DNA of 64,000 nucleotides from an uncultured Dehalococcoidales bacterium (GTDB taxonomy: Bacteria; Chloroflexota; Dehalococcoidia; GIF9; UBA5629): contig CAYNVO010000001.1 in assembly GCA_964400675.1 (NCBI GenBank), positions 139,919-203,918 of the forward strand, given 5' to 3'. A program made the position numbers and the translations under genes. The notes beneath the pieces are model-generated. The model searched no databases, was not told the origin of the DNA, and saw only the letters and a program-made list of their open reading frames with translations. Shown here piece by piece: positions 1,839 through 64,000 of this stretch. How positions within the stretch are numbered: the first letter of the stretch is position 1; every line of letters begins with the position of its first letter.

Positions 1839-2065
1839 CAATCCCACTCCGCCAGTATAATAATGCAAACGAAGCGGCATATGCAAATTCAGACTTACTC
1901 GAAAATTTTTGTCTTAATCTGAACAGCCAGAGTCTTACCCTGATTATAGTTACTCATAATCTGAAGCTGGCTAAAATAGCTCAAAGGTAATACAATTGAG
2001 AGATGGCGAAATGGCTCGCAAATATTCGAGCCATAATTCACCAGGAAAAGCAGGGAGTTAAGTTA

Positions 2066-2995
2066 ATGGCTAAAATGGCTAAAGATATTACAGAGCTTAT
2101 CGGAAATACTCCTCTGGTCAGGTTGAACAGGATAACAGCAGGCGCCAAAGCCGAAGTCGTAGCCAAGCTGGAGTTCTTCAACCCTTGCAGCAGCATTAAG
2201 GACCGCATTGCAGTGTCTATGATTAAAGCCGCTGAAGACCAGGGGTTAATAAACAAAGATACGGTGATTGTCGAGCCTACCAGCGGCAACACCGGTATCG
2301 CCCTGGCTTTTGTCTGTGCATCGCGCGGTTATCGCTTGATACTAACCATGCCGGAGACGATGTCAGTGGAGCGAAGGCATATTCTGTCTTTCCTGGGTGC
2401 CGAGCTGGTGCTAACGCCCGGTGGTGAGGGCATGTCCGGTGCAGTACGGAGGGCTGAACAACTGGTAGCCGGGAACAAGAATTACTTTATGCCACAGCAG
2501 TTCAAGAACCCGGCGAATCCTGAAATTCACCGCCAGACCACTGCTGAGGAAATCTGGAAGGACACAGATGGTAAGATAGACATTCTGGTAGCCGGTATTG
2601 GAACAGGCGGCACCATCACCGGTGTAGCTGAGGTGATTAAGAAGAGAAAACCTGGATTTAGGGCTGTTGCCGTCGAGCCGTCTGATTCGCCGGTTCTTTC
2701 CGGCGGCAAAGCTGGCCCGCATAAAATTCAGGGCATAGGCGCCGGTTTTATTCCCGATGTACTGAAGCTGGAGCTGGTCGACGAAATCATCAAGGTAACC
2801 AGCGATGATGCCGGTGCCACAGCCAGGAGGTTAGCCAAAGAGGAGGGGATACTGGCCGGCATATCTTCCGGTGCCGCAGCCTGGGCGGCTCTTGAGGTTG
2901 CCAAGAGAAACGAGAACAAGGGTAGGCTCATCGTGGTGATTTTACCCGATACCGCAGAGCGTTATATATCCACCTGGCTTTTTCAGGAGCTTTGA
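2066..2995 (+). CDS. cysK: cysteine synthase A (O-acetylserine sulfhydrylase)
   Basis: Translation [20 protein letters not shown]...SSIKDRIA...[11 protein letters not shown] is the PLP-dependent CysK/CysM signature. The internal ATG at 2066 is the likely start of the 2003..2995 ORF. Confidence 0.9.
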
Positions 2996-3165
2996 TTTTC
3001 CTGTGCCAGGCATTCGACCAACTGAGCCAATAGGACTATAATATAGCGAATACCCGCATTGCGGACAGAGTTAGCTATAATTTCAAACGGAGGCAAGAGT
3101 AAAAATCGTCACATTTCTCTATTTGCTATACTCGCAGCTCACCGAATTCAACGGAGGATAAGGGT

Positions 3166-3600
3166 ATGGGTAAAATTATTGCCGTCTGCAAAAGCGATGA
3201 AAGAGGAACCAAGAAGGAAGACGTAAAAGAAGGTATTCTGGAGGAAGACTTCGGCCTCGTCGGCGATGCCCATGCTGATTCCTGCACGCATCGGCAGGTG
3301 AGCCTGCTGGCCGTGGAGAGCATCGATAAGATGCGGGCGCTGGGACTGGAGTTAAAGCCGGGCGATTTCGCCGAGAATCTGACTACTGAGGGAATAGAGT
3401 TGATGTCTCTGCCTGTGGGCACGAGGATGTCAGTCGGCGAGCAGGTCGTACTGGAGGTCACTCAAATCGGCAAGGAGTGCCATGCCGGGTGCGCTATCTT
3501 CCAGCAGGTGGGCAAGTGCGTCATGCCTGAAGAGGGCGTGTTTACCAGGGTGATAAAAGGCGGCACTGTCAAATCTGGAGACCACATAAAGGTGGGGTGA
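3166..3600 (+). CDS. MOSC-domain protein (molybdenum cofactor sulfurase C-terminal domain, YiiM-like)
   Basis: 144 aa; the GDFAENLTTEGIEL...CHAGCAIFQQVG pattern is typical of the MOSC beta-barrel. RBS ggaggataagggtATG. Confidence 0.65.
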   Translation: MGKIIAVCKSDERGTKKEDVKEGILEEDFGLVGDAHADSCTHRQVSLLAVESIDKMRALGLELKPGDFAENLTTEGIELMSLPVGTRMSVGEQVVLEVTQIGKECHAGCAIFQQVGKCVMPEEGVFTRVIKGGTVKSGDHIKVG

Positions 3601-5632: not shown

Positions 5633-5759
5633 ACAAAACGTCAAAAAGTGCATCTGGTGAGAATCTTGTAGAAGGGACTGGAGTTTAGTAAACTTACCCC
5701 AACTTTATAGTGATTCATGATTGGTTTCACGATTATCTAATGTTTGGAGGTGGGAGACA

Positions 5760-6209
5760 ATGATAGACCAGAAAAAGCAAGTCGCAAAAGAGGCCAAGCG
5801 TGAAGAGAAGCGCATTGCGGAAAAAGCTGCGCGACTAGCCAGAGAGCAGGCAAGAAGAAAAACTGATCTGGCCAGAGAGCAAGCGATTCAAAAAGAGCAA
5901 GCAGCAAGAGGGGCCAAGCGTGAAGAGAAGCGCATTGCGGAAGAACCTGCGCGACTAGCCAGAGAGCAGGCAAGAAGAAAAACTGATCTGGCCAGAGAGC
6001 AAGCGATTCAAAAAGAGCAAGCAGCAAGAGGGGCCAAGCGTGAAGAGAAGCGCATTGCGGAAGAACCTGCGCGACTAGCCAGAGAGCAGGCAAGAAGAAA
6101 AACTGGTCTGGCTAGAGAACAGGCAATAGCCGAAGATCAGGAGGCGAGAAGGCGAGAAATCGAAAAAGCGAAAATCAACCACCAGAATAAGCTAAAGAGG
6201 TATGGGTAG
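5760..6209 (+). CDS. hypothetical highly charged coiled-coil protein built from perfect 40-aa tandem repeats (KREEKRIAE.ARLAREQARRKTDLAREQAIQKEQAARGA)
   Basis: ORF 5721..6209; RBS ggaggtggga precedes the ATG at 5760. The DNA contains 2.6 copies of a 120-bp unit, each encoding 40 aa in frame. Confidence 0.5.
   Translation: MIDQKKQVAKEAKREEKRIAEKAARLAREQARRKTDLAREQAIQKEQAARGAKREEKRIAEEPARLAREQARRKTDLAREQAIQKEQAARGAKREEKRIAEEPARLAREQARRKTGLAREQAIAEDQEARRREIEKAKINHQNKLKRYG
5792..6110. repeat. tandem direct repeat, 120-bp unit x about 2.6 (copies 1 and 2 differ at about 3 positions; copy 3 diverges in its last third)
   Basis: The unit starting ggccaagcgtgaagagaagcgcattgcgg recurs at 5792, 5912 and 6032. 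Confidence 0.9.
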
Positions 6210-6227
6210 TAGGCAAGCCTGTGCATC

Positions 6228-6372
6228 GTTTGCAATTGCGCCTCATTTAGTATACACTAGAAGAGGTGGTTTTTAGTTTACGTTACTTCTTACTTGCCTA
6301 GATCCTCTTAGATTTTTCCAAGTTTCGGGTGACCATAACTCTAACCAACTATTTTAAAAGAGGAGGTCATCC
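6228..6372 (+). promoter_or_regulatory. putative promoter (TTGCAA-N15/17-TATACA/TACACT) plus a conserved long 5' leader of zinc-ribbon gene copy 1
   Basis: The segment aligns with 7588..7734 upstream of paralog 2: shared ttagtRtaYaStagaagWggtggtt...ggtgacc..aactc.aaccaacta...aagaggaggtcatccaATG. Confidence 0.4.
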
Positions 6373-6564
6373 ATGAGTTTCGAAGATAAATCGATTCAGT
6401 GTTCCGATTGTGGTACTACCTTTAGCTTCACTTCCGGGGAACAGGAATTCTTTGCATCTAAAGGTTTTACCAACGAACCTAAGCGTTGTGTTCAGTGCCG
6501 AAGAGCTAAGAAACAACAGAATAGTGGTTCAACCAACTATGCGTTCAGCGACAGTAGAAGATAA
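6373..6564 (+). CDS. small CxxC...CxxC zinc-ribbon protein (paralog 1 of 3)
   Basis: 63 aa; SIQCSDCGTTFSFTSGEQEFFASKGFTNEPKRCVQCRRAKK. Strong RBS aagaggaggtcatccATG. Paralogs at 7735 and 22549. Confidence 0.65.
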   Translation: MSFEDKSIQCSDCGTTFSFTSGEQEFFASKGFTNEPKRCVQCRRAKKQQNSGSTNYAFSDSRR

Positions 6565-6589
6565 GTCAAATAATAGTTGACTTGACCTT

Positions 6590-6634
6590 GAGGACATACA
6601 TAGGCCCGAAATTGTGTGGCTTATGTGTGTCCTC
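6590..6634 (+). terminator. conserved hairpin downstream of the zinc-ribbon gene (stem gaggacatacataggcc / ggcttatgtgtgtcctc); terminator or RNA-stability element, no U-tract
   Basis: An imperfect 17-bp inverted repeat sharing the ACATACATAGGCC core with the hairpin at 7955..7990. Confidence 0.4.
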
Positions 6635-6799
6635 ATACAAGCTGTTAACGAGGAGCTTTGATAAAATGATAGATACTCTTAACAGCGACCATGGTAATTT
6701 GGGAAACAGTGTACCTCTGGTAGAACTGCGTACATGTCATTCCGTACTTAGTTGATTACATATACTTTTTCATCTCGTTACACAAAAAGGAGCGGGAAA

Positions 6800-6991
6800 A
6801 TGAAGTTTGATAAAAGTAAGGGTTTTTGCAATGGGCTTTATGTTCACAATGGAGGATGTGAGGTTACCTTTCATTCATTGAAGCATACAAATAGTGAGGT
6901 TACTATAAGAAACTGTAAAAAGTGTACTTGTCCTTTAGCTAGAAGCCATAGGCAACAATATTCTGATGAAAAAAGAGGGATTATTAAATAA
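6800..6991 (+). CDS. hypothetical small Cys-rich protein (63 aa) in an AT-rich segment
   Basis: RBS aaaaaggagcgggaaaATG at 6800. MKFDKSKGFCNGLYVHNGGCEV...CKKCTCPLA has 6 Cys. Local GC is well below the window average. Could be spurious. Confidence 0.3.
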   Translation: MKFDKSKGFCNGLYVHNGGCEVTFHSLKHTNSEVTIRNCKKCTCPLARSHRQQYSDEKRGIIK

Positions 6992-7381
6992 GGATAAAAT
7001 GACATTTGGATGATTTAATGATGCGAAACAATTCAGTAAGACCTGATATTGACAAAAAGTATCGTGTACATATCATCGTGGAGGTCACTAGTTCTAGATC
7101 CATCCTTAACAACCAGCCAATTTGTGTATAAGAATGGAAGAGCTTAAATATACATTTTTTACCATACTAAATATTTCTATTACGAGAGGCCATTTGATCT
7201 TAAGAATTCAATGAGCTCCGAAGATGATATGGCCTCTCCAAGCATAACTTGAGTTAACTCACGAAAATAAAGGAGTATCTCTGCAACAACTTGTGCTTCA
7301 ACCATAGACCCTGTTTTCCCGTTTTGATCTGTGTAATTAAAGGCCACCCCAGACTTAGTATCAGAAAGCACTTTAATCGCT

Positions 7382-51218: not shown

Positions 51219-53687
51219 ATGAATATCTACGCTATACCTCCTCTATTGGCAGCCATTGCCTATATCCCATTGCTTGCTATCCTGCTGGCTAATCGACCCT
51301 GTAACAGACAGCAGAGGCTTTTTGCCTGGTTTCTAATCGCTGCCGTACTCTGGAGTGGCAGTGACATCCTCTTCCGCGGCGATTTCTTTATGCAAGATAA
51401 GTTTCTCCTGGCTAAAGTTGTTGCCTGCACTTTCACCTTAGCAGCGGCGCAGTTACACTGCTTTATATCCTCCTACTATCCTCCAAATAAGGGCCGTTGG
51501 CTGCCCCTAGCCTATGCTTCGTTAGCCATCATGATATTCTTGGTAGCGATGGGCTATGTTCCTAAAGACGTTATTGTTACCGGTAACAAAATGTACCTCG
51601 TGTATGGCAATGGTGTTTTCTTAATGGGGTTGCCTCTGGCTATCCTGACGGTCAGAAGTGTACACATTTTATGGCAGCAGTTTCGAACTTCAGACGACCC
51701 GGTACTGCGTAACCAGATGGTTTATCTATTATTGAGTATTGGCATTTTGGTTGCCGCCGTGTTTACAGTTTTCATTCCCTGGGGAAATGAAGTTCCGATT
51801 AGCCACATTGGAAATTTAATCAACGCTGTTATTCTGAACTATGCTGTACTCAGACATCGTTTATTAGATATCAAGGTTGTTTTCCGCCGTGGGCTAGTCT
51901 GGGTAGGTTTAATCGCTGTCAGTATAGGTCTCTATCTGGCTTTGTTTCTATTAATCCACTCTTTTACTGGCATCGAGTTAGATATAATCACCTTAGCTCT
52001 GGCTACACTGGCAGCAATTGCTATAGGTGGTGGTGTTTATCTGTCGCAGAGTTTCTTTTCCAGAGGTGCAGACCGGCTTTACTATAGAGCGCGGTATGAT
52101 TACATTCAGAGACTGCGCATTTTCCTGAGGAATGAATTAAGCGGCGTTCTTAGCCTGAGGGAGTTGATTAAGGAATTGCTGCCATTGCTTACCGGGGCTT
52201 TGGATTGCAGGCAGGTATACTTATTGTTGCCAGACTCAGGGGGTGGCGACCTCGTTGTACAGTTTTCTGAACCAAAAAGGGATGATGTTCCGCAAGTGAG
52301 ATTGATGTGGGACAATCAAGTTTTGGGATGGTTGCGCCGAGAAAATAGATACCTGCTTAAGGAAAGCCTGGATATCAACCCTGAATTTAGCGGTATGCGG
52401 GGTGAGGAAAAAGATTGGCTAAAAGACCTGGATGTGGAATTACTATTTCCTGTGGTAAGCCGTGGCAGCCTTATTGGCGTATTGGCGCTAGGCGAAAAGG
52501 AATCCGGCAAGTACTCGCTTGAAGATGTCAATCTAGTCGAGACTGTCATAACTAAGGTAGCCGTAAGTGTAGAGAAGGAATATCTTCAGGAGGGACTCAG
52601 AAAGCGGGAGCAAGAATATCTTCAGGGAGAACTTAGAAAGCGGGAGCAAGAGCTAGACCTGATTAACCGGCTGGCTATAGTTATTACCTCCAGTTTAAAT
52701 ATACGAGAGGTATATGATGCCTTTATCACAGGGTTGAGGGAGGTGGTTAACATTGATTGGGCGACGATTGCCCTGATAGAAGGTGACGAGCTTAGTTTAG
52801 AGGTTTTGTCCACGGAGGTGGGCTCGGCGTGGGGAGCGGGGGAAAAGATGCCACTTAAGGGTACAGGCACCGAGTGGGTAGTCAAACATAAAAAGGCTTT
52901 GTTCGAGCCTGACCTAAAGAAAAAGAAGAGGTTCTGGACAGGTGAGGAACACTTAAAGCGGGGAATCAGGTCAGTAGTTTACCTTCCATTACTGGTAAGG
53001 GGACAGGCGATAGGCAGTTTGATTATAGCCAGCCGTAAACCGAATGCTTACACTCCCGGTCAGGTACACCTTCTGGAGCGTCTGGCTTCTCAGATTGCCA
53101 TGCCGGTGGAGAACAGTCGGCTTTATGCCAGAGCCGAGCAGAGGGCTCGGATCGACGAGCTTACGAACTTGTTCAACCGCCGTCACTTCGATGAACGTAT
53201 AAAACAGGAGATTGAGCGTCATGCTCGTTACAGGGGGATGCTGTCTTTGGTTCTTCTCGACCTTGATTTCTTCAAGGCCTACAATGACACACAGGGGCAT
53301 ACGGCTGGTGACAAGATTCTGGAATTGATAGGCAAGTTGATTAACAAGACTATAAGGAATACCGACCTGGCTTTTCGTTATGGTGGTGATGAGTTTGCTA
53401 TCATACTACCGCAATCGGCGACTAATGATGCTCTTGTGGTAGCCGAGAGGGTTCGGGGTAGGATTGCATCCGAGATGAGCAAGAGGGATATCAGGATAAG
53501 TGCCAGTCTTGGCTTAGCATCGTGGCCTAGCGATGGTGTGGCAACTAACGAACTTATCAATGCGGCTGACAGGGCGTTGTATTATGCTAAGGAGACGGGA
53601 GGTAATCGGACCTGTATTGCCTCCAAGATGTTGCCTTCTCCGACCGGGAAGGCTACTACGAGAGCTAAATCGAAAGACAAAATTTGA
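51219..53687 (+). CDS. membrane sensor diguanylate cyclase: 7TM-like domain - GAF - GGDEF (paralog lacking HD-GYP)
   Basis: 822 aa; identical GAF-GGDEF block to the upstream paralog; internal 11-aa duplication EKEYLQEGLRKREQEYLQGELRKREQE. Confidence 0.85.
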   Translation: MNIYAIPPLLAAIAYIPLLAILLANRPCNRQQRLFAWFLIAAVLWSGSDILFRGDFFMQDKFLLAKVVACTFTLAAAQLHCFISSYYPPNKGRWLPLAYASLAIMIFLVAMGYVPKDVIVTGNKMYLVYGNGVFLMGLPLAILTVRSVHILWQQFRTSDDPVLRNQMVYLLLSIGILVAAVFTVFIPWGNEVPISHIGNLINAVILNYAVLRHRLLDIKVVFRRGLVWVGLIAVSIGLYLALFLLIHSFTGIELDIITLALATLAAIAIGGGVYLSQSFFSRGADRLYYRARYDYIQRLRIFLRNELSGVLSLRELIKELLPLLTGALDCRQVYLLLPDSGGGDLVVQFSEPKRDDVPQVRLMWDNQVLGWLRRENRYLLKESLDINPEFSGMRGEEKDWLKDLDVELLFPVVSRGSLIGVLALGEKESGKYSLEDVNLVETVITKVAVSVEKEYLQEGLRKREQEYLQGELRKREQELDLINRLAIVITSSLNIREVYDAFITGLREVVNIDWATIALIEGDELSLEVLSTEVGSAWGAGEKMPLKGTGTEWVVKHKKALFEPDLKKKKRFWTGEEHLKRGIRSVVYLPLLVRGQAIGSLIIASRKPNAYTPGQVHLLERLASQIAMPVENSRLYARAEQRARIDELTNLFNRRHFDERIKQEIERHARYRGMLSLVLLDLDFFKAYNDTQGHTAGDKILELIGKLINKTIRNTDLAFRYGGDEFAIILPQSATNDALVVAERVRGRIASEMSKRDIRISASLGLASWPSDGVATNELINAADRALYYAKETGGNRTCIASKMLPSPTGKATTRAKSKDKI

Positions 53688-54522: not shown

Positions 54523-55932
54523 GTGAGGAAAATTTCAAGGACTATATCCGGGGTGACGCCGGTGGCTGTTATGGGCAAGCCGATAGGTTGTCCAGGAGAA
54601 TGCATTTATTGCCCCGCTTTTCCTGATGCACCGAAGAGCTATACGCCGGAATCACCAGCGGTGCTCAGGGCTAAGCTGTGTAATTATGAGCCCAGAAGAC
54701 AGGTTGAGGAGAGGGTGAGGATTCTTTTGGACATGGGGCATCCGGCTGATAAGGTCGAGCTCATTATCATGGGGGGCACTTTCCTGGCTTATCCTGAGGA
54801 GTATCAATACCATTTTATAAAGGATTGCTATGATGGCTTGAATGGCATTGAGTCTCTAAGTTTGGAGGCAGCCAAGCAGATAAATGAAACTGCTGAACAC
54901 AGGTGTGTGGGGCTATGCATTGAGACCAGACCTGATTGGTGTCGGGAGGAGGAAGTCAAGAGAATGCTGGAATTCGGTACCACCCGGGTTGAGCTAGGGG
55001 TGCAGACACTGGACGATGACATATACCGGGTGGTTAAGCGAGGGCATAATGTAGCCGAGGTGGTGAGGGCTACAAAGCTACTGAAGGACTACGGCTTCAA
55101 GGTCTATTATCACTGGATGCCGGGATTGCCCGGTTCAACTTCAGAGCATGACCTGGAGTTGTCTAAGGAGCTTTTCACCAATGAGGATTTTAGACCTGAC
55201 GGACTAAAGCTTTACCCGACACTGGTTATTGCTGGCACCGAGCTCGAGACATGGTACAGAGATGACCGCTATCAACCTTATCCTATGGACGAGATGGTAG
55301 ATTTGATGATAAACATCAAGACTCATGTTCCCGGCTATATCAGGATTCCACGCGTGATGCGTGATATTCCCAGCAAATTCATAGTGGCTGGCTGTAAAGA
55401 TTTAGCATTGAGGAGTTCGATTAAGAAGCGGATGGAAGAGATTGGCGTTCGGTGTAGCTGCATCCGCTGTCGTGAGTACGGGCATCGTATGAGAGATGGC
55501 TGGAAAATCGGCGCGCCAAATTTGATGAGGCAGGATTATGGGGCATCAGGGGGAAAGGAAGTGTTTCTTTCTTTCGAAGACGAGGACGAAACCTTATTTG
55601 GTCTGCTTCGGATGCGGGTAGATTATTCGGCATCTGGTATCGGTGGTTTGGCTATGGTCAGGGAACTACACGTATTCGGTTCAGAGGTTCCTCTGGGGGA
55701 GCAGTTGGCTGAGGCGGCTCAGCATAGAGGTCTTGGGGGGGAGTTGCTCAAAGAAGCTGAAAGAATTGCTCGTGATGAATTTCAAGCTCGCAGGATTGCT
55801 ATTATCAGTGGCGTCGGTGCCAGGGGATATTTCCGCTCCGAATGCGGCTATGAGTTAGATGGCGCCTATATGGTTAAAGAGTTGGTTGGGGCAGCTTCAC
55901 CTAACATTCATGGAGATGCGTTTCAACATTAA
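54523..55932 (+). CDS. elp3: Elp3-like tRNA uridine(34) modification enzyme (radical SAM + GNAT acetyltransferase)
   Basis: CPGECIYCP radical SAM cluster; C-terminal GNAT domain; 469 aa, typical of bacterial/archaeal Elp3. Confidence 0.85.
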   Translation: MRKISRTISGVTPVAVMGKPIGCPGECIYCPAFPDAPKSYTPESPAVLRAKLCNYEPRRQVEERVRILLDMGHPADKVELIIMGGTFLAYPEEYQYHFIKDCYDGLNGIESLSLEAAKQINETAEHRCVGLCIETRPDWCREEEVKRMLEFGTTRVELGVQTLDDDIYRVVKRGHNVAEVVRATKLLKDYGFKVYYHWMPGLPGSTSEHDLELSKELFTNEDFRPDGLKLYPTLVIAGTELETWYRDDRYQPYPMDEMVDLMINIKTHVPGYIRIPRVMRDIPSKFIVAGCKDLALRSSIKKRMEEIGVRCSCIRCREYGHRMRDGWKIGAPNLMRQDYGASGGKEVFLSFEDEDETLFGLLRMRVDYSASGIGGLAMVRELHVFGSEVPLGEQLAEAAQHRGLGGELLKEAERIARDEFQARRIAIISGVGARGYFRSECGYELDGAYMVKELVGAASPNIHGDAFQH

Positions 55933-55996
55933 GAAAGAATGAAAGTTTGATACGGAGAAGTAAATTTCTGGCAGCAAGACTTGAAAGTTAGCTAAG

Positions 55997-57229
55997 TTAT
56001 TTTTGTTTCAGCCGTTTTGCAGGATATTCAGTTTCATAAGTATGTTGTACAATAGGGCTGTCAAGAATTTTAGTCTTTTTTTGCAATTCTTCCATAGCTC
56101 TTTGGTTTTTCTCTGTCCAATCAGGGATGTCAAATAAACAAAAATCATATGAAAATAAGGGCTGGTACTTTTTTTCGGTCGCAATACCAAGAACCTTTTT
56201 ATTTTCTTGGTACTTACCTCGTGCAATAAAGCACATATTGGTAAGCATTACCTTGCGGTGATTTCTTGGGATTGAATCATCTTGGAATAAAAAACAATAG
56301 GTGACACCCTTGCTCTCAAATGTACGCCGAAATATGTTATGTATATCATCTCTGTCTGCCTTAATAGATGCATCAAAATAGTGTTTGCTTAAAACACGTC
56401 TTTCGAAACGATTTGGACGTGCAAGTTCCCTAGCTATTGTTTCGTAAATAGATCGGGGTGAAGCCTTATGGCATTCGTTGATAAGACTATCCCAAAGGTA
56501 ACTTATCTCATCTGCTTTCTTCTTTGCCTTATATTCCGCCTTGTTCTGAAGCTGTTCCCAAGAGCCGTCCATGATTGTTATCATTGTTGCCTCTTGTAAT
56601 TCTTTAAAACTCCGGTTGTTTCCCAAATATTCAGCCAATAGCTCTTCTTCTCCGCCAATAATTAGTATATGTACATCCTTGGAGAATAGCTCTTCTTTTG
56701 CTCGGATGTAGCTAATGAAATCGCTAATCGTATTAAGCTCGTTCAAAATAATTTGTGTGAAATTTTTAGTAAAGACATGGGCAATATGGTTTTTGATGCT
56801 TTCTGTGGGAGAAAAGAAATCTTCACCGGCTCCAAGAAGTACAGATATAAGATGAATTTCCCTTATTATTATCGGGTCAAATTGTTCTTTATCCCTTCGC
56901 GGATTCTCAAGCTCTATGGCTTTTTGTAGGTTGAAAAGTTGCCTGCGAGCGCCAGCAAGTTGTCGCAGATTCTTTTCAACCTCTGTTTTTTTGTATTTGC
57001 CGTGTTTGTTAAGTTTCAAGTCTTTGATCTGCCAAATGATTGCGATATCATCAAAGATAACTAACAAGTCGCATAGTTCTTTGCCGTCAGGTAATCGTGG
57101 ATTCAGATAGCACCAGTCTCTAAAGAAAGTCTTTAAAGCTAAATCCTGAACAAAACTCTCTGCGTTCTTCCCTTTGATAAAGAAATAATCCCCCCCAATA
57201 TTCATTTTTAGTATGCTTTCTTTTCGCAA
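55997..57229 (-). CDS. hypothetical AT-rich protein with an N-terminal NERD-like / PD-(D/E)xK nuclease-like motif
   Basis: 410 aa; GKNAESFVQDLALKTFFRDWCYLNPRLPDGKELCDLLVIFDDIAIIWQIKDLK fits the NERD pattern (G..aE..V...L...y.....l...E.D.lvi....i.iiE/QvK). GC about 35% against about 49% for the window. Confidence 0.55.
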   Translation of the reverse strand: MRKESILKMNIGGDYFFIKGKNAESFVQDLALKTFFRDWCYLNPRLPDGKELCDLLVIFDDIAIIWQIKDLKLNKHGKYKKTEVEKNLRQLAGARRQLFNLQKAIELENPRRDKEQFDPIIIREIHLISVLLGAGEDFFSPTESIKNHIAHVFTKNFTQIILNELNTISDFISYIRAKEELFSKDVHILIIGGEEELLAEYLGNNRSFKELQEATMITIMDGSWEQLQNKAEYKAKKKADEISYLWDSLINECHKASPRSIYETIARELARPNRFERRVLSKHYFDASIKADRDDIHNIFRRTFESKGVTYCFLFQDDSIPRNHRKVMLTNMCFIARGKYQENKKVLGIATEKKYQPLFSYDFCLFDIPDWTEKNQRAMEELQKKTKILDSPIVQHTYETEYPAKRLKQK

Positions 57230-57249
57230 TTTAATTTTGGGCTTGTTTC

Positions 57250-58236
57250 TTATTCAGATTGGTTTGTTTGATTATACAGGTGACAGGCGACGAAATGACC
57301 TTCTGCTATTTCAGCTAATTCGGGTTCCTCTTGTTTACAGATTGGTATTACCCGATGACATCTGGGGTGGAAGTGGCAGCCGGGTGGGGGGTTGAGAGGA
57401 GAAGGCACATCTCCATGCAAGAGTATTCTGGCTTTATCTTTTTGCTTAAAGCTGGGTACCGCTGAAAGTAAAGCTTCAGTATAAGGATGTAGAGGATTTT
57501 CGAAGAGGTCCTTATTATTTGCCAGCTCCACGATTTTCCCCAAATACATTATGGTTACCCTTTGTGCCATATGCCTTATCACCGATAAATCGTGGGCGAT
57601 GAGCAAATAAGCCAGGCCGAACCTTTCCTGAATGTCCATCATCAGATTCAGAATCTGAGCCTGTATGGATACATCCAGTGCACTCACTGGTTCGTCAGCG
57701 ATGATAAGCTTCGGGTTCATAGCTAAGGCACGAGCGATGCCGATGCGCTGTTTCTGGCCGCCGCTGAACTCATGTGGATATAGATTAGCTTGCCCGGATT
57801 CCAAGCCGACTTGTTCCATTAACTCAGCTATCCTATCTATTCGTTCCCTTTCGGTGCCAATCTTATGGATAATCAGGGGTTCGCATATGGAATCACCGGC
57901 GGTCATTCTCGGGTCGAGAGAGGCGTCGGGGTCCTGGAATATTATTTGGATTTCCCTTCTTAATTCCCTGAGCTCCTTGTTGTCCAGCCTGGTAACATCG
58001 GTTCCTTTGTATAGAATTTCTCCGCTGGTTGGTTCCTCCAGCCTGGGGATTGTTCTGCCCAGTGTTGATTTGCCGCATCCTGATTCGCCAACTAAACCTA
58101 TGATTTCTCTTTCGCTTATGTCGAAGGTCACCCCATCTACGGCTTTTATATCTCCGATATGACGTGAGAAGAATCCGGCGGTCACCGGATAGTACTTTTT
58201 GAGGTTTTTTATTTGTAATAAATTGTGATTCAGCAT
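57250..58236 (-). CDS. oppF: oligopeptide ABC transporter ATP-binding protein
   Basis: Walker A GESGCGKST, LSGGQKQR, C-terminal oligopeptide/dipeptide ABC domain. Confidence 0.85.
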   Translation of the reverse strand: MLNHNLLQIKNLKKYYPVTAGFFSRHIGDIKAVDGVTFDISEREIIGLVGESGCGKSTLGRTIPRLEEPTSGEILYKGTDVTRLDNKELRELRREIQIIFQDPDASLDPRMTAGDSICEPLIIHKIGTERERIDRIAELMEQVGLESGQANLYPHEFSGGQKQRIGIARALAMNPKLIIADEPVSALDVSIQAQILNLMMDIQERFGLAYLLIAHDLSVIRHMAQRVTIMYLGKIVELANNKDLFENPLHPYTEALLSAVPSFKQKDKARILLHGDVPSPLNPPPGCHFHPRCHRVIPICKQEEPELAEIAEGHFVACHLYNQTNQSE

Positions 58237-61245: not shown

Positions 61246-62982
61246 TTATTCAAAATACCACAGATAGTAGTTATAGCCTATGCTGGGGCCAGGTTCTATC
61301 CCCATGACGTTCTTCTGGAAGCCTAGATTGACTCTGTGATAGAGGAGGAAATCCGCAGGCAAGTCCTCAGAAAGCAGAAGAGATAGCTCGGCGTATATTT
61401 GTTTACGGGCCTCTATGTCTAGCGCCTCTTTTGTTTTAATTTGTTTGAATAAATTGTCCACTTCGGGGTTAGAATAGCCCATAAAATTGAGGCCTCCGTC
61501 GGTGGCGTAGAAAACTTGGCTTCCGGATGGTGCCAGCACATCGCTGCCAAAGCCCAACAAAAGCATGTCCCACGCCTGCTCGCTCACCGCTTCAGCACCA
61601 TTGTTGTCTCGGGGTTCCTGGTCACTACCGGGGACTTTGTTCTCCATGAATTGCCTTAGTAGCGTAGCCCATGGTACCAGCTTTATCTCTGTTTCTATCC
61701 CTAAAGTAAGGAGTTCCCGTCTTACCTGGAAAGCTATGTCCTCGGCAACTTTGCTACCCTGATTGGTTACCAGGACTAGATTAAGAAGACTGCCGTCTTT
61801 CTTGGTGACACTTATGGTGCCATCTTCTTTTTTGACTCCATAGCCTTCCTGGTAAAAAATCTCGGCGGCTTTCTCCTTATCATAAAGCTCTCCCACTCCG
61901 TATCTGGCTATACTCTCATTGTCATACCATGGGGATATTGAAGGGATAAAGCTGAAGGCAGGCTCGGCGAATCCGAGGAGTATAGACTGCGTAATGGTAT
62001 CTTTGCTTATTGACATGGCTATGGCTTGTCTGATGGACTTGTTTTTCAATCCATCCCAGCCGTTAGCTCGCTGATTAAAAGCTAAGACGGTACAACCCCC
62101 GCTTGGTAGGGTGTACACTTTGATATTCTCCATATTTCTGAATCTGTTGGCTTGTTCCGGTTCTATTCCAGAGTAGGTTATGTCACCGGCTTCTAGAGCT
62201 GCCTGCCTGGTGGCTGGGGTGCCGAAGAGTTTTACTATGTATTGGTCAAAGTAGGGAGCTCCGGCATCTTTCCCCAGATAATATTCGGGATTACGCTCAA
62301 CCAGGAACTTATCATTCCTGTTCCACTCCTTGAATCGGTATGGCCCTAGGTTTCCCGTGTAGGTCAGGTTGTTGAACTCAGGTGCTTCGGTAAAGGCTTT
62401 GACATCACCCTCGTATATAGTGGCGATATACTTGGGGTAGGGGAACAGGTCGTAAATGATGTAGACGAACTCAGGGTCAACGGTTCTGCGGGTTATCTTG
62501 AATGTGGTGGCATCGATTACTTCAGGTGTGACAAAGACCTTCTCGCCGTTCAACTCTTCTTGCCAGTCTCCTTTGTATGGATAGTTCAGCCAGTCTGAGA
62601 ACATGAGGTTCTTCAGTGTGTAGACATAGTCTTCCGCAGTGACTTGTGAGCCACTGCTCCATTTGAGGTCATCTCTGATGGTTACAGTATAAACCAAACC
62701 GTCTGTTGATACCTCTACATCCTTAGCCAGACAACGCAACTGGATGTTGAAGTTGTTGTCGTACGTGGCTAGCGAGTCTACTGTGTGGTCGTAATAACTC
62801 GAAGAAGTGGCATCACTGATCAGTATCCGGTTTAGGCTCTCGGCATCACCGCCTGAAACTCCTTCTATAAAGTTGCCTCTAGTTGAGATGCCTTCGTCTT
62901 CTTTAATCTCGCCTTTGGTGCACCCTGCGGTCAATATAATCAGTACAATTGATATGGCTATGAGAATTCTTAATTTCTTCAT
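61246..62982 (-). CDS. oppA: oligopeptide ABC transporter substrate-binding lipoprotein (solute-binding protein family 5)
   Basis: Lipobox LTAGC; 578 aa. Confidence 0.85.
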   Translation of the reverse strand: MKKLRILIAISIVLIILTAGCTKGEIKEDEGISTRGNFIEGVSGGDAESLNRILISDATSSSYYDHTVDSLATYDNNFNIQLRCLAKDVEVSTDGLVYTVTIRDDLKWSSGSQVTAEDYVYTLKNLMFSDWLNYPYKGDWQEELNGEKVFVTPEVIDATTFKITRRTVDPEFVYIIYDLFPYPKYIATIYEGDVKAFTEAPEFNNLTYTGNLGPYRFKEWNRNDKFLVERNPEYYLGKDAGAPYFDQYIVKLFGTPATRQAALEAGDITYSGIEPEQANRFRNMENIKVYTLPSGGCTVLAFNQRANGWDGLKNKSIRQAIAMSISKDTITQSILLGFAEPAFSFIPSISPWYDNESIARYGVGELYDKEKAAEIFYQEGYGVKKEDGTISVTKKDGSLLNLVLVTNQGSKVAEDIAFQVRRELLTLGIETEIKLVPWATLLRQFMENKVPGSDQEPRDNNGAEAVSEQAWDMLLLGFGSDVLAPSGSQVFYATDGGLNFMGYSNPEVDNLFKQIKTKEALDIEARKQIYAELSLLLSEDLPADFLLYHRVNLGFQKNVMGIEPGPSIGYNYYLWYFE

Positions 62983-63153
62983 CTGTCAACCTTCCTAGAT
63001 TTTGTATTTGTGTCGCTTTGACCGTAGCTATCTTTTTTTATTGGCTCGTTTCGATTGTTGCCTACCCTTAGTTTCGTTTGTTGCTTTATTGCCTTGCCTG
63101 ACTTGAAACGATTCAAATTAAGAAAACCTTTGCTTGACATAAAACAAATAATC

Positions 63154-64000
63154 CTAAATGAAGCTTTCCTTTATCTGAAGAATTACCTCGTCAACGCTGT
63201 CAGGGGTTTCTGAGATAATACGCTTGATGGCTTCTTCGACTTTCTGATATTTATGCGTATCGTAAAGGTCATCCAGTTTCTCATAATAGCCGGCCCTTCT
63301 TCCCAGCCTGAAATTGAGTTTTTCCCGGGGTGGTAGTGTTAGATATCTGTTTATTGTAGCCAGACAGGCTGATTTTGCCTCTGGGAATTTACCTTCTAAT
63401 TCGGGCAGGAGATTCAATATATGGTCGCTCTTAAATTCACTGGTTACCTCGAGCTTTTCAATGAGTTTACCGATTTCTTCAACCACCTCGTCTTCTTTCT
63501 GGAGTTCAAAATCGCCAGCTTCTACTTTTGACCACAAGAGTATATTCTCACGGACATGAAGGGTGCGTAATCTGATGTAATCGGGGTCGATTTCATTAAG
63601 AACTCTGGCTGTGCCGGTGATGTGGTCCGATGACATTTTTCTGCCGCCGAGTCCGGGCATAATATATTCACATAATGAAATGCCAGCCTCTTTTATGTTT
63701 TTGCCACCTGCGATGTGTTCTTCCGCTGTAACCCCTTTCTCCATATAGCTGAGCACAAGGTTGGAGCCGCTTTCCATTCCGATGTGTAATCGGGAAAGTC
63801 CGGCATCTTTTAGCTCTTTCAATTCGTCTAATGACTTTTTGGCGGCAGTCTTTGAACGGGCATACGAGGTTATCCTGTTGAGTTCTGGAAAAGCTTGTTT
63901 CAGAAAAGAGACTACTTTTACCAGATCAGGCGTCCTCATTATAAGGGTATTAGCATCTTGAAGAAATGCGGAATTGCCACCTGCCCATAGCCAGAGAGCC
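63154..64000 (-). CDS. radical SAM-domain protein, 5' (N-terminal) end beyond the window
   Basis: The reading frame stays open upstream of the annotated Met to the window edge. LHIGMESGSNLVLSYMEKGVTAEE resembles the MiaB/HemN-type [LH].[VM][EQ]SGS..VL..M.RG.T motif. Confidence 0.55.
   Translation of the reverse strand, partial: ALWLWAGGNSAFLQDANTLIMRTPDLVKVVSFLKQAFPELNRITSYARSKTAAKKSLDELKELKDAGLSRLHIGMESGSNLVLSYMEKGVTAEEHIAGGKNIKEAGISLCEYIMPGLGGRKMSSDHITGTARVLNEIDPDYIRLRTLHVRENILLWSKVEAGDFELQKEDEVVEEIGKLIEKLEVTSEFKSDHILNLLPELEGKFPEAKSACLATINRYLTLPPREKLNFRLGRRAGYYEKLDDLYDTHKYQKVEEAIKRIISETPDSVDEVILQIKESFI

Follow-up and report, generated by a model that had tools for sequence, protein, structure and literature searches.

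Solitary restriction endonucleases of the type IV-like kind and PD-(D/E)xK effectors such as Mrr and Shedu SduA combine a nuclease with a recognition or regulatory domain. ZwsA (Zowangsin) is a stand-alone RNA endonuclease with a nuclease-related domain (NERD) that defends Pseudomonas against RNA phages (bioRxiv 10.64898/2026.04.06.716636), and Rugutis is a single-gene, abortive infection (Abi)-like system of a lactococcal plasmid that is triggered by the terminase large subunit (PMC11381338, PMC13064643). Here we analyse a low-GC gene in a 64,000-nucleotide stretch of DNA (hereafter the window) from an uncultured Dehalococcoidales bacterium of the Chloroflexota (assembly GCA_964400675.1, contig CAYNVO010000001.1, positions 139,919 to 203,918). 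The gene lies on the minus strand between an oppF-like gene and elp3, and encodes a protein of 402 amino acids (aa) with a putative nuclease domain at its N-terminus and a conserved C-terminal region. The best reading of this protein, for which we judge the evidence to be about evenly balanced, is a stand-alone nuclease carried as conflict cargo or as a single-gene defence element. The main value of the analysis is that it exposes a very large uncatalogued family of bacteria and archaea.

The list of open reading frames (ORFs) confirms a minus-strand ORF at 55997..57229, with 410 aa from a TTG start. P0001, a database protein seen in 24 examined contigs, is 100% identical but has 402 aa and begins with MNIGGDYFF at the ATG at 57205. 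Because P0001 and all aligned homologues share this N-terminal start, we take ATG 57205 as the start codon, and the real coding sequence (CDS) is most likely 55997-57205 on the minus strand, stop codon included, with its ATG 24 nt inside the TTG. The eight extra codons from the upstream TTG (57206..57229, minus strand), which are missing in P0001 and in every aligned homologue, are probably 5' untranslated region and not coding. An earlier reading made from the letters of the window and their ORFs (the sequence-only reading) had quoted the N-terminal peptide correctly. It had also called the gene AT-rich, and the contrast is real, although the GC content is 37% rather than about 35% and the neighbouring genes range from 46 to 50%. 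The gene has a GC content of 0.372-0.374 against 0.475 in the flanking 5 kb on either side, and no other 1.2-kb stretch of the window has a lower value; it lies 3.6 standard deviations (sd) under the mean (64-kb window mean 0.477, sd 0.029). Since the G+C content at third codon positions (GC3) is also low, 0.36 against 0.49-0.59 in seven neighbouring genes, the contrast extends to synonymous sites, beyond what the K/I/L/E-rich amino-acid content would bring.

A structural model of the protein was obtained with AlphaFold2 (AF2). From 30 close sequences, the predicted local distance difference test (pLDDT) of the N-terminal domain was 40-55, and this model was replaced by one from 87 sequences, with pLDDT 95 and a predicted TM-score (pTM) of 0.92. 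In the latter, residues 1-146 (56768..57205, minus strand) comprise a helix (6-25), three strands (32-34, 47-51 and 54-62), a second helix (73-92) and a fourth strand (97-101). This alpha-beta-beta-beta-alpha-beta order is that of the PD-(D/E)xK core, and we refer to the domain as having a putative PD-(D/E)xK or NERD-like fold on the basis of the model and of weak Foldseek and NERD matches. In alignment A3, which holds 87 sequences and reaches down to 27% identity, three residues are invariant: E16 in the first helix (57158-57160, minus strand), E43 just before strand 2 and K61 in strand 3. D46, which opens strand 2, is shared by at least 90% of the sequences, while position 59 in strand 3 is Q in the close subfamily and S in the distant majority. 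Conservation in A3 thus outlines a putative catalytic core, E43-L-C-D46 ... Q59-I-K61, at 57023..57079 on the minus strand. The acids and the lysine that define the PD-(D/E)xK motif on strands 2 and 3 are present as a variant rather than in the canonical form, with Q or S at the middle position. E16 or E43 would supply the acid missing from the Q/S-x-K motif; restriction enzymes of the Cfr10I and NgoMIV type work with S-x-K and a recruited glutamate.

The best-ranked lists of the Foldseek searches are overwhelmingly made up of PD-(D/E)xK enzymes. Among the top matches is the restriction-like endonuclease of the R2 retrotransposon, with a probability of 0.97 and a root-mean-square deviation of 3.9 Å over 122 columns, which is below the significance threshold. 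RecE, the putative exonuclease 3l0a, CidB/CinB, and viral nucleases of the RecB-family and Cas4-like types are other top-ranked matches, and one "nuclease-related domain" protein is also among the best-ranked. A Foldseek search of BFVD gave one unnamed protein at E 6.8e-4 and no other at E<=1e-3, and searches of PDB sequences with the single protein and with three profiles gave nothing. The nuclease-type site proposed for the N-terminus from the sequence alone is upheld by the conservation of E16, E43, K61 and D46 and by their placement on the elements of the model, whose putative nuclease fold has no significant structural match.

The same proposal held that the N-terminus matches the NERD consensus. 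NERD proteins and the family do share an order of motifs: K-G-x-x-x-E in helix 1, D in strand 2, (E/Q)-x-K in strand 3 and a conserved Q in the next helix. Nevertheless, the NERD hallmarks I-D-H and E-T-K-N-Y are replaced in the family by C-D-L-L and Q/S-x-K, and the invariant E43 is an extra residue relative to NERD proteins. The Pfam NERD model (PF08378) matches 18 of 69 distant relatives weakly, with a best E of 1.8e-4. Alignment of the family profile with the pXO1 NERD protein by hhalign placed the motifs in register at a non-significant E of 0.087. A NERD profile was also built from the pXO1 founder WP_000453400.1 and 33 relatives, all with PF08378 (34 sequences); against it, E was 0.17 over the full length and 0.033 for the N-terminal domain alone, with a probability below 2%. 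The claimed match holds for the register of the motifs but not for the scores, as Pfam misses the window protein and the hhalign E values of 0.03-0.17 are sub-threshold. "NERD-like" is a fair term for the motif pattern, but these comparisons do not establish the protein as a member of the NERD family in its defined sense.

The C-terminal region, residues 147-402 (56000..56767, minus strand), has a pLDDT above 90 throughout. In the AF2 model it is laid out as a helical middle, a beta-beta-alpha-beta-beta-alpha module and a conserved E-x-E-Y-P tail. Residues conserved in at least 90% of the A3 sequences are L157, T159, D162, Y166, L167, E171, E186, L190, S235, D239, I242, R266, R269, R270, L272, L321, G340 and E393; H143, just upstream in the N-terminal part, reaches the same level. 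No match to residues 147-402 was found in Pfam, NCBIfam, PDB sequences or PDB structures. For the whole window protein, no Pfam or NCBIfam model, P-loop or other, was found at E<=10, in agreement with the earlier statement that no P-loop or other recognisable motif is present outside the N-terminus. A GNAT assignment of the C-terminal region was rejected, as the matches are weak (E 0.1-0.7), the TM-scores poor, and neither amounts to evidence. PHROG 18195, a group of unknown function, matches aa 140-369 with E 3.5e-14.

In order to determine the size of the family, we used a word-indexed search of a 90%-identity collection and an exhaustive profile search of 50%-identity clusters at E<=1e-3. 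The former gave 924 matches, and the best 120 of the 924 are all full-length, with 58-81% identity. The latter gave 2,511 clusters, 772 of them at E<=1e-30, and the 150 best-scoring of the 2,511 are mostly of about 400 aa with the same architecture. A genome scan with patterns of the close subfamily, covering one genome per species (185,579 species representatives), identified 49 loci at 44-65% identity. Bacterial loci include Chloroflexota, Patescibacteria, Thermodesulfovibrionia, Acidobacteriota, Planctomycetota, Actinomycetes and Gammaproteobacteria, and archaeal loci include Woesearchaeota, Micrarchaeota, Bathyarchaeota, Altiarchaeota and Methanomicrobiales. At 50 of 55 loci, and in all phyla, the GC content of the gene is below that of its flanking 5 kb on either side. 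As judged from scans of 69 distant relatives, the family is not covered by any model of Pfam, NCBIfam or PADLOC. A short SEC-C zinc motif occurs in about 17% of the close homologues, usually at the N-terminus and sometimes at the C-terminus; the window protein has none. One metagenome-assembled genome (MAG) of the Terriglobales, SMAG_U7692, has two divergent copies (L035 and L036, on contigs DATCCF010000382 and DATCCF010000264). In another member, P0149 (603 aa), residues 401-571 are a C-terminal HsdS target-recognition domain (Methylase_S, E 2.3e-39), which could be a real fusion or a merger made by gene calling.

The family is also found on plasmids. The IncN plasmid member WP_020324153.1 (491 aa) aligns by hhalign over residues 16-386 with a probability of 100% and E 2.9e-44. 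Its E, E-x-x-D and S-D-K motifs are conserved; unlike the window protein, it has insertions and a SEC-C motif, and the two are about 25% identical. It is annotated solely as "SEC-C metal-binding domain-containing protein" and is uncharacterised. About 95 IncN conjugative plasmids, from Klebsiella, Citrobacter and E. coli, carry this member, and it is identical (at least 99%) in about 90 clinical and environmental plasmids of Enterobacteriaceae. On the IncN plasmid pECSIC9 (L064, NZ_MG886286.1) the gene lies at 1998-3473, near a resolvase and a pair of cytosine methyltransferase and restriction endonuclease genes. Further plasmid members were found in Diaphorobacter, Rhizobium, Agrobacterium and Providencia.

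Analysis of the gene neighbourhoods supports the earlier description of a lone gene. When the four ORFs on either side were clustered in the 49 loci from other genomes, no family was shared beyond 3 loci, and among the 150 immediate neighbours no Pfam family (151 families in all) occurs more than twice. Some copies are solitary among housekeeping genes, like the window copy (L072). Other neighbourhoods contain genes of defence or mobile elements: HsdS, HEPN, a relaxase, a type IV coupling protein and AbiEi in L069; a large serine recombinase with Dcm and Vsr in L071; and a fused LexA-methyltransferase of the Eco57I type in L062. At the sole locus from IMG/VR (L073) the gene has a large serine recombinase and two DNA methylases as neighbours, and type I and type II restriction-modification (RM) genes, Dsr1, Fic and AbiU2 are scattered among the neighbours of other homologues. 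Such genes adjoin only a minority of the homologues. Serine recombinases adjoin three homologues, and none was found near any of the 49 genome loci. There is some apparent association with conflict loci.

The insertion of the gene was analysed in related genomes with long contigs, which were sought with the neighbouring Elp3 as a handle (86-89% Elp3 identity). In three relatives (L055-L057) elp3 and oppF are convergent and 127, 23 and 12 bp apart, with no gene between them. Nucleotide homology (blastn) between the window and these sites ends at about 55881-55884 and restarts at about 57273-57275. This delimits an inserted block of about 1.39 kb (55885..57272), missing in the three related genomes, which has a single ORF and gives both elp3 and oppF new last codons and stops. 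The C-terminal extension of Elp3 that is encoded by the block ends in ...VGAASPNIHGDAFQH, and the C-terminus of OppF gains ...NQTNQSE. The flanking genes themselves are context, outside the element. The oppF-like ABC ATPase gene (57250..58236, minus strand), of which about the last 7 codons come from the block, shares the strand of the gene and has its stop at 57250, which leaves 20 bp to the TTG and 44 bp to the ATG. The elp3 gene, for a radical SAM/GNAT tRNA-modification enzyme (54571..55932, plus strand), of which about the last 15 codons come from the block, has its stop at 55932 and converges on the gene, with 64 bp to the stop of the latter. The ORF list thus agrees with the placement given earlier, after the oppF-like gene on the same strand and converging on elp3.

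The empty interval in the three relatives (12-127 bp) and the composition bear out the proposal of a foreign insertion. We found no terminal inverted or direct repeats bracketing 55885-57272, and no target-site duplication, transposase/integrase or mobility gene in the block, which therefore does not qualify as a transposon, an insertion sequence or an integron cassette. A 3' flank of about 100 nt (55885..55996, minus strand) travels with the gene: it is conserved downstream of the L058 and L059 orthologues and overlaps, on the other strand, the extended C-terminus of elp3. A terminator scan of this flank found no terminator-like hairpin. Positions 55976-55995 of the flank show 85% complementarity over 20 nt to 57005-57024 (the K-D-L-K-L-N-K codons of the catalytic strand); this is not the best pairing in orthologues, so it is probably chance and was rejected as a functional pairing.

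Even though the gene is foreign, the comparison does not favour a recent or unique acquisition. The same oppF-elp3 site is occupied in three other lineages (L058-L061), with 72-81% aa identity, and there the gene is still low-GC, each lineage showing a deficit of 10-12 GC points relative to the flanks. The closest homologues, P0002 (81% aa identity) and P0003 (72%), are encoded directly downstream of the oppF orthologue, with the same junction after ...HFVACHLY. The ratio of nonsynonymous to synonymous substitution rates (dN/dS) of the gene is 0.13-0.16 against the syntenic orthologues, which indicates that the gene is kept by purifying selection. Judged by these sequence comparisons, the insertion is an old rather than a recent event. 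Between the window and L058, dS is 0.79 for the gene against 1.42 for the adjacent oppF, a hint, and only a hint, that the block may have moved between related lineages through recombination in its flanks. In L059 and L060 a truncated elp3 remnant lies downstream of the gene. In this P0003 lineage elp3 is cut to a remnant of 115 aa (L059 1776-2123, L060 1816-2163), which at its 3' end abuts, with almost no gap, DNA that normally precedes elp3; palindromic REP-like repeats separate the gene from this remnant. The scan of species representatives gave no locus matching the oppF-elp3 site of the window, though both search patterns fit the window protein; perhaps the genome representing this species is without the gene, or the collection does not include it.

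Regarding expression, read-through from the opp operon probably accounts for transcription of the gene, because the 44-bp spacer from the oppF stop to the ATG (57206..57249, minus strand) has neither a promoter-like site nor a terminator in the promoter and terminator scan. The orthologous spacers in L058 and L059 are of about 150 bp and have a TTGACA element, which is missing in the window spacer. The window gene would thus have lost the promoter-like upstream element of its orthologues.

In the reading that we prefer, the N-terminal domain would be a metal-dependent nuclease of the restriction-endonuclease or NERD type. The conserved region of about 255 residues at the C-terminus would recognise a target or trigger and control the nuclease, and the whole protein would act alone, as a single-gene defence or restriction-like nuclease against invading nucleic acid. 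DNA would be the more likely target, because of the HsdS fusion and the RM genes among the neighbours. RNA would also be possible, given that phage RNA is the substrate of the stand-alone NERD protein ZwsA.

Several observations weigh against this reading. PF08378 misses the window protein even at E<=10, Foldseek against the PDB gave no match at E<=1e-3 with either model (best E 0.03), and Q or S takes the place of the canonical second acid of (D/E)xK, which makes catalysis dependent on an assumed substitute residue. The mean column identity of the close subfamily is 59%, and identities of 58-81% across phyla are unusually high for a defence gene. Only 1 locus was found in the 2.9 million viral contigs of IMG/VR with the close alignment, a search of a phage collection returned no family member, and most genomic neighbours are ordinary housekeeping genes. 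In PADLOC-DB v2.0.0 the window protein matches only HEC-01B, at E 0.012 over 74 residues. No PADLOC model recurs among the 69 relatives, PDC-S12 and E2 being found in 2 members each, and 10 further members gave no match. The PDC-S12 and E2 matches are probably owed to the SEC-C motif, because two members also match SEC-C families in NCBIfam. No known defence model is thus found for the window protein or family-wide, and only a minority of the homologues adjoin defence or mobile-element genes, so the defence or toxin gene proposed by the sequence-only reading stays a candidate. Finally, the function proposed for the family is deduced from sequence and model.

Other explanations must account for the same data. 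The protein might serve the mobile elements that carry it, in the maintenance of plasmids or integrative elements, in recombination, in entry exclusion or in competition with rival elements, the chromosomal copies being remnants. The distribution on about 95 IncN conjugative plasmids, beside a resolvase, would fit such a role, as would the member beside a relaxase and a coupling protein, the two beside large serine recombinases, and a GC content below that of the host almost everywhere. We nevertheless consider it unlikely, because the window copy and its orthologues occupy one chromosomal site with no mobility genes and under purifying selection, no serine recombinase is near the 49 genome loci, and the neighbours are mostly housekeeping genes. 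These same neighbours, for example in copies after a ribosomal-protein operon or near RNase Y and RF-1, would suit an ordinary cellular nuclease for the repair or processing of nucleic acids with a patchy distribution, and so would the strong full-length conservation, the low dN/dS and the frequency of the gene in small-genome organisms of the candidate phyla radiation (CPR) and of DPANN. This is quite improbable for a gene that is missing at the same locus in close relatives, has no conserved synteny, shows a consistent GC deficit, occurs on plasmids and in two divergent copies in one MAG (L035/L036), and yielded only 49 loci when the 185,579 species representatives were scanned with close-subfamily patterns.

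Two further explanations concern the activity itself. The N-terminal domain could be a catalytically dead PD-(D/E)xK-like scaffold, in which case the protein would be a binding or regulatory factor or would have its activity in the C-terminal region, where D162, E171, E186, D239, R266, R269 and R270 could form a site of their own. A strand motif of Q/S-x-K instead of D/E-x-K and the lack of a significant match to any active nuclease are compatible with this explanation. It is, however, very unlikely, since the strict conservation of E16, E43 and K61 and the near-strict conservation of D46 at 27-81% identity are hard to explain without catalysis, and Cfr10I and NgoMIV are active with the same kind of S-x-K motif and a recruited glutamate. 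Least credible, and in our view extremely improbable, is a toxin of a toxin-antitoxin pair or the endonuclease of a type II RM pair. A nuclease-like fold in a foreign gene and methyltransferases adjoining some homologues could suggest one. However, only oppF and elp3 flank the gene in the window, and neither a small partner ORF nor a methyltransferase recurs in the 49 loci; in the absence of a dedicated partner, a classical pair of either kind is ruled out, and this explanation is largely refuted.

A wider proposal, which we put forward tentatively and as a possibility that is somewhat more doubtful than probable, is that these proteins form an unrecognised family of single-gene immune or conflict nucleases across bacteria, CPR, DPANN, other archaea and clinical IncN plasmids. 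They would combine a degenerate NERD-type nuclease with a new sensor fold of about 255 residues, and their conservation across domains (about 45-65% identity) would reflect the recognition of a highly conserved feature of invaders or cells. If this is true, none of the curated catalogues of protein families and defence systems searched here has captured a family of thousands of members, to which belong a gene of the widespread IncN resistance plasmids and genes of the poorly understood CPR and DPANN lineages. It would also bring a new sensor or regulatory fold among the stand-alone nuclease effectors. The IncN homologue offers a tractable experimental entry in E. coli and Klebsiella. For the source genome the significance is modest: a foreign, selectively kept gene at the end of the opp operon that rewrote the last codons of both neighbours.

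Elsewhere in the window, a basic ORF of 53 aa (62979-63140, minus strand) lies between a radical-SAM gene (63154-63939, minus strand) and an oppA-like gene (61246-62982, minus strand), and overlaps the start of the latter. The same 53-aa gene is called at the matching position in the relatives L001 and L056. A radical SAM enzyme, a small peptide and a peptide ABC transporter could possibly form a cluster for peptide modification and transport rather than a plain opp operon. An ORF at 5721-6209 (plus strand) contains three tandem repeats of about 37 aa rich in K/E/R/A (AKREEKRIAEEPARLAREQARRKTDLAREQAIQKEQAARG). The second lowest-GC stretch of the window, about 1 kb at 6200-7180 with a GC content of 0.38, has no ORF of at least 100 aa. 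The gene at 51219-53687 (plus strand) and the one upstream of it (L001 16157-19186) encode adjacent large signalling proteins with seven transmembrane segments (7TM), GAF and GGDEF, one of them with HD, and are conserved in relatives.

Compared with the systems described so far, the family resembles several of them in part. The usual partners of NERD in NERD proteins are a topoisomerase zinc finger, a helicase or a kinase, and the C-terminal 255 residues of the family are unrelated to these. ZwsA is alike in kind, being a single-protein system that needs its E...D...E-x-K NERD site, and it demonstrates that a lone NERD-type protein can be a defence effector. It differs in having VHS, DUF647 and S4 domains and an internal NERD, there is no sequence link between the two, and function is shown for ZwsA alone. 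Solitary type IV-like restriction enzymes and effectors such as Mrr and Shedu SduA share with the family the lack of a methyltransferase partner and a horizontal spread. The differences are the absence of a PADLOC match, the nuclease-first order of the family and a different C-terminal domain. The likeness to Rugutis is by description only: a single gene borne on a plasmid, an N-terminal SEC-C, and a confident AlphaFold model without a match in the PDB. Rugutis has 359 aa against 425-445 aa in the members of the family that bear SEC-C, a motif that the window protein lacks. Plasmid searches found no match to family members on Lactococcus plasmids, and a "SEC-C" protein of an Enterococcus plasmid, considered as a bridge to Rugutis, is unrelated to the family; the link to Rugutis is a lead, not a finding. 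Overall, the closest systems in kind are the stand-alone PD-(D/E)xK effectors, namely NERD proteins, ZwsA, type IV-like solitary restriction enzymes and Shedu, and the closest by description is Rugutis.

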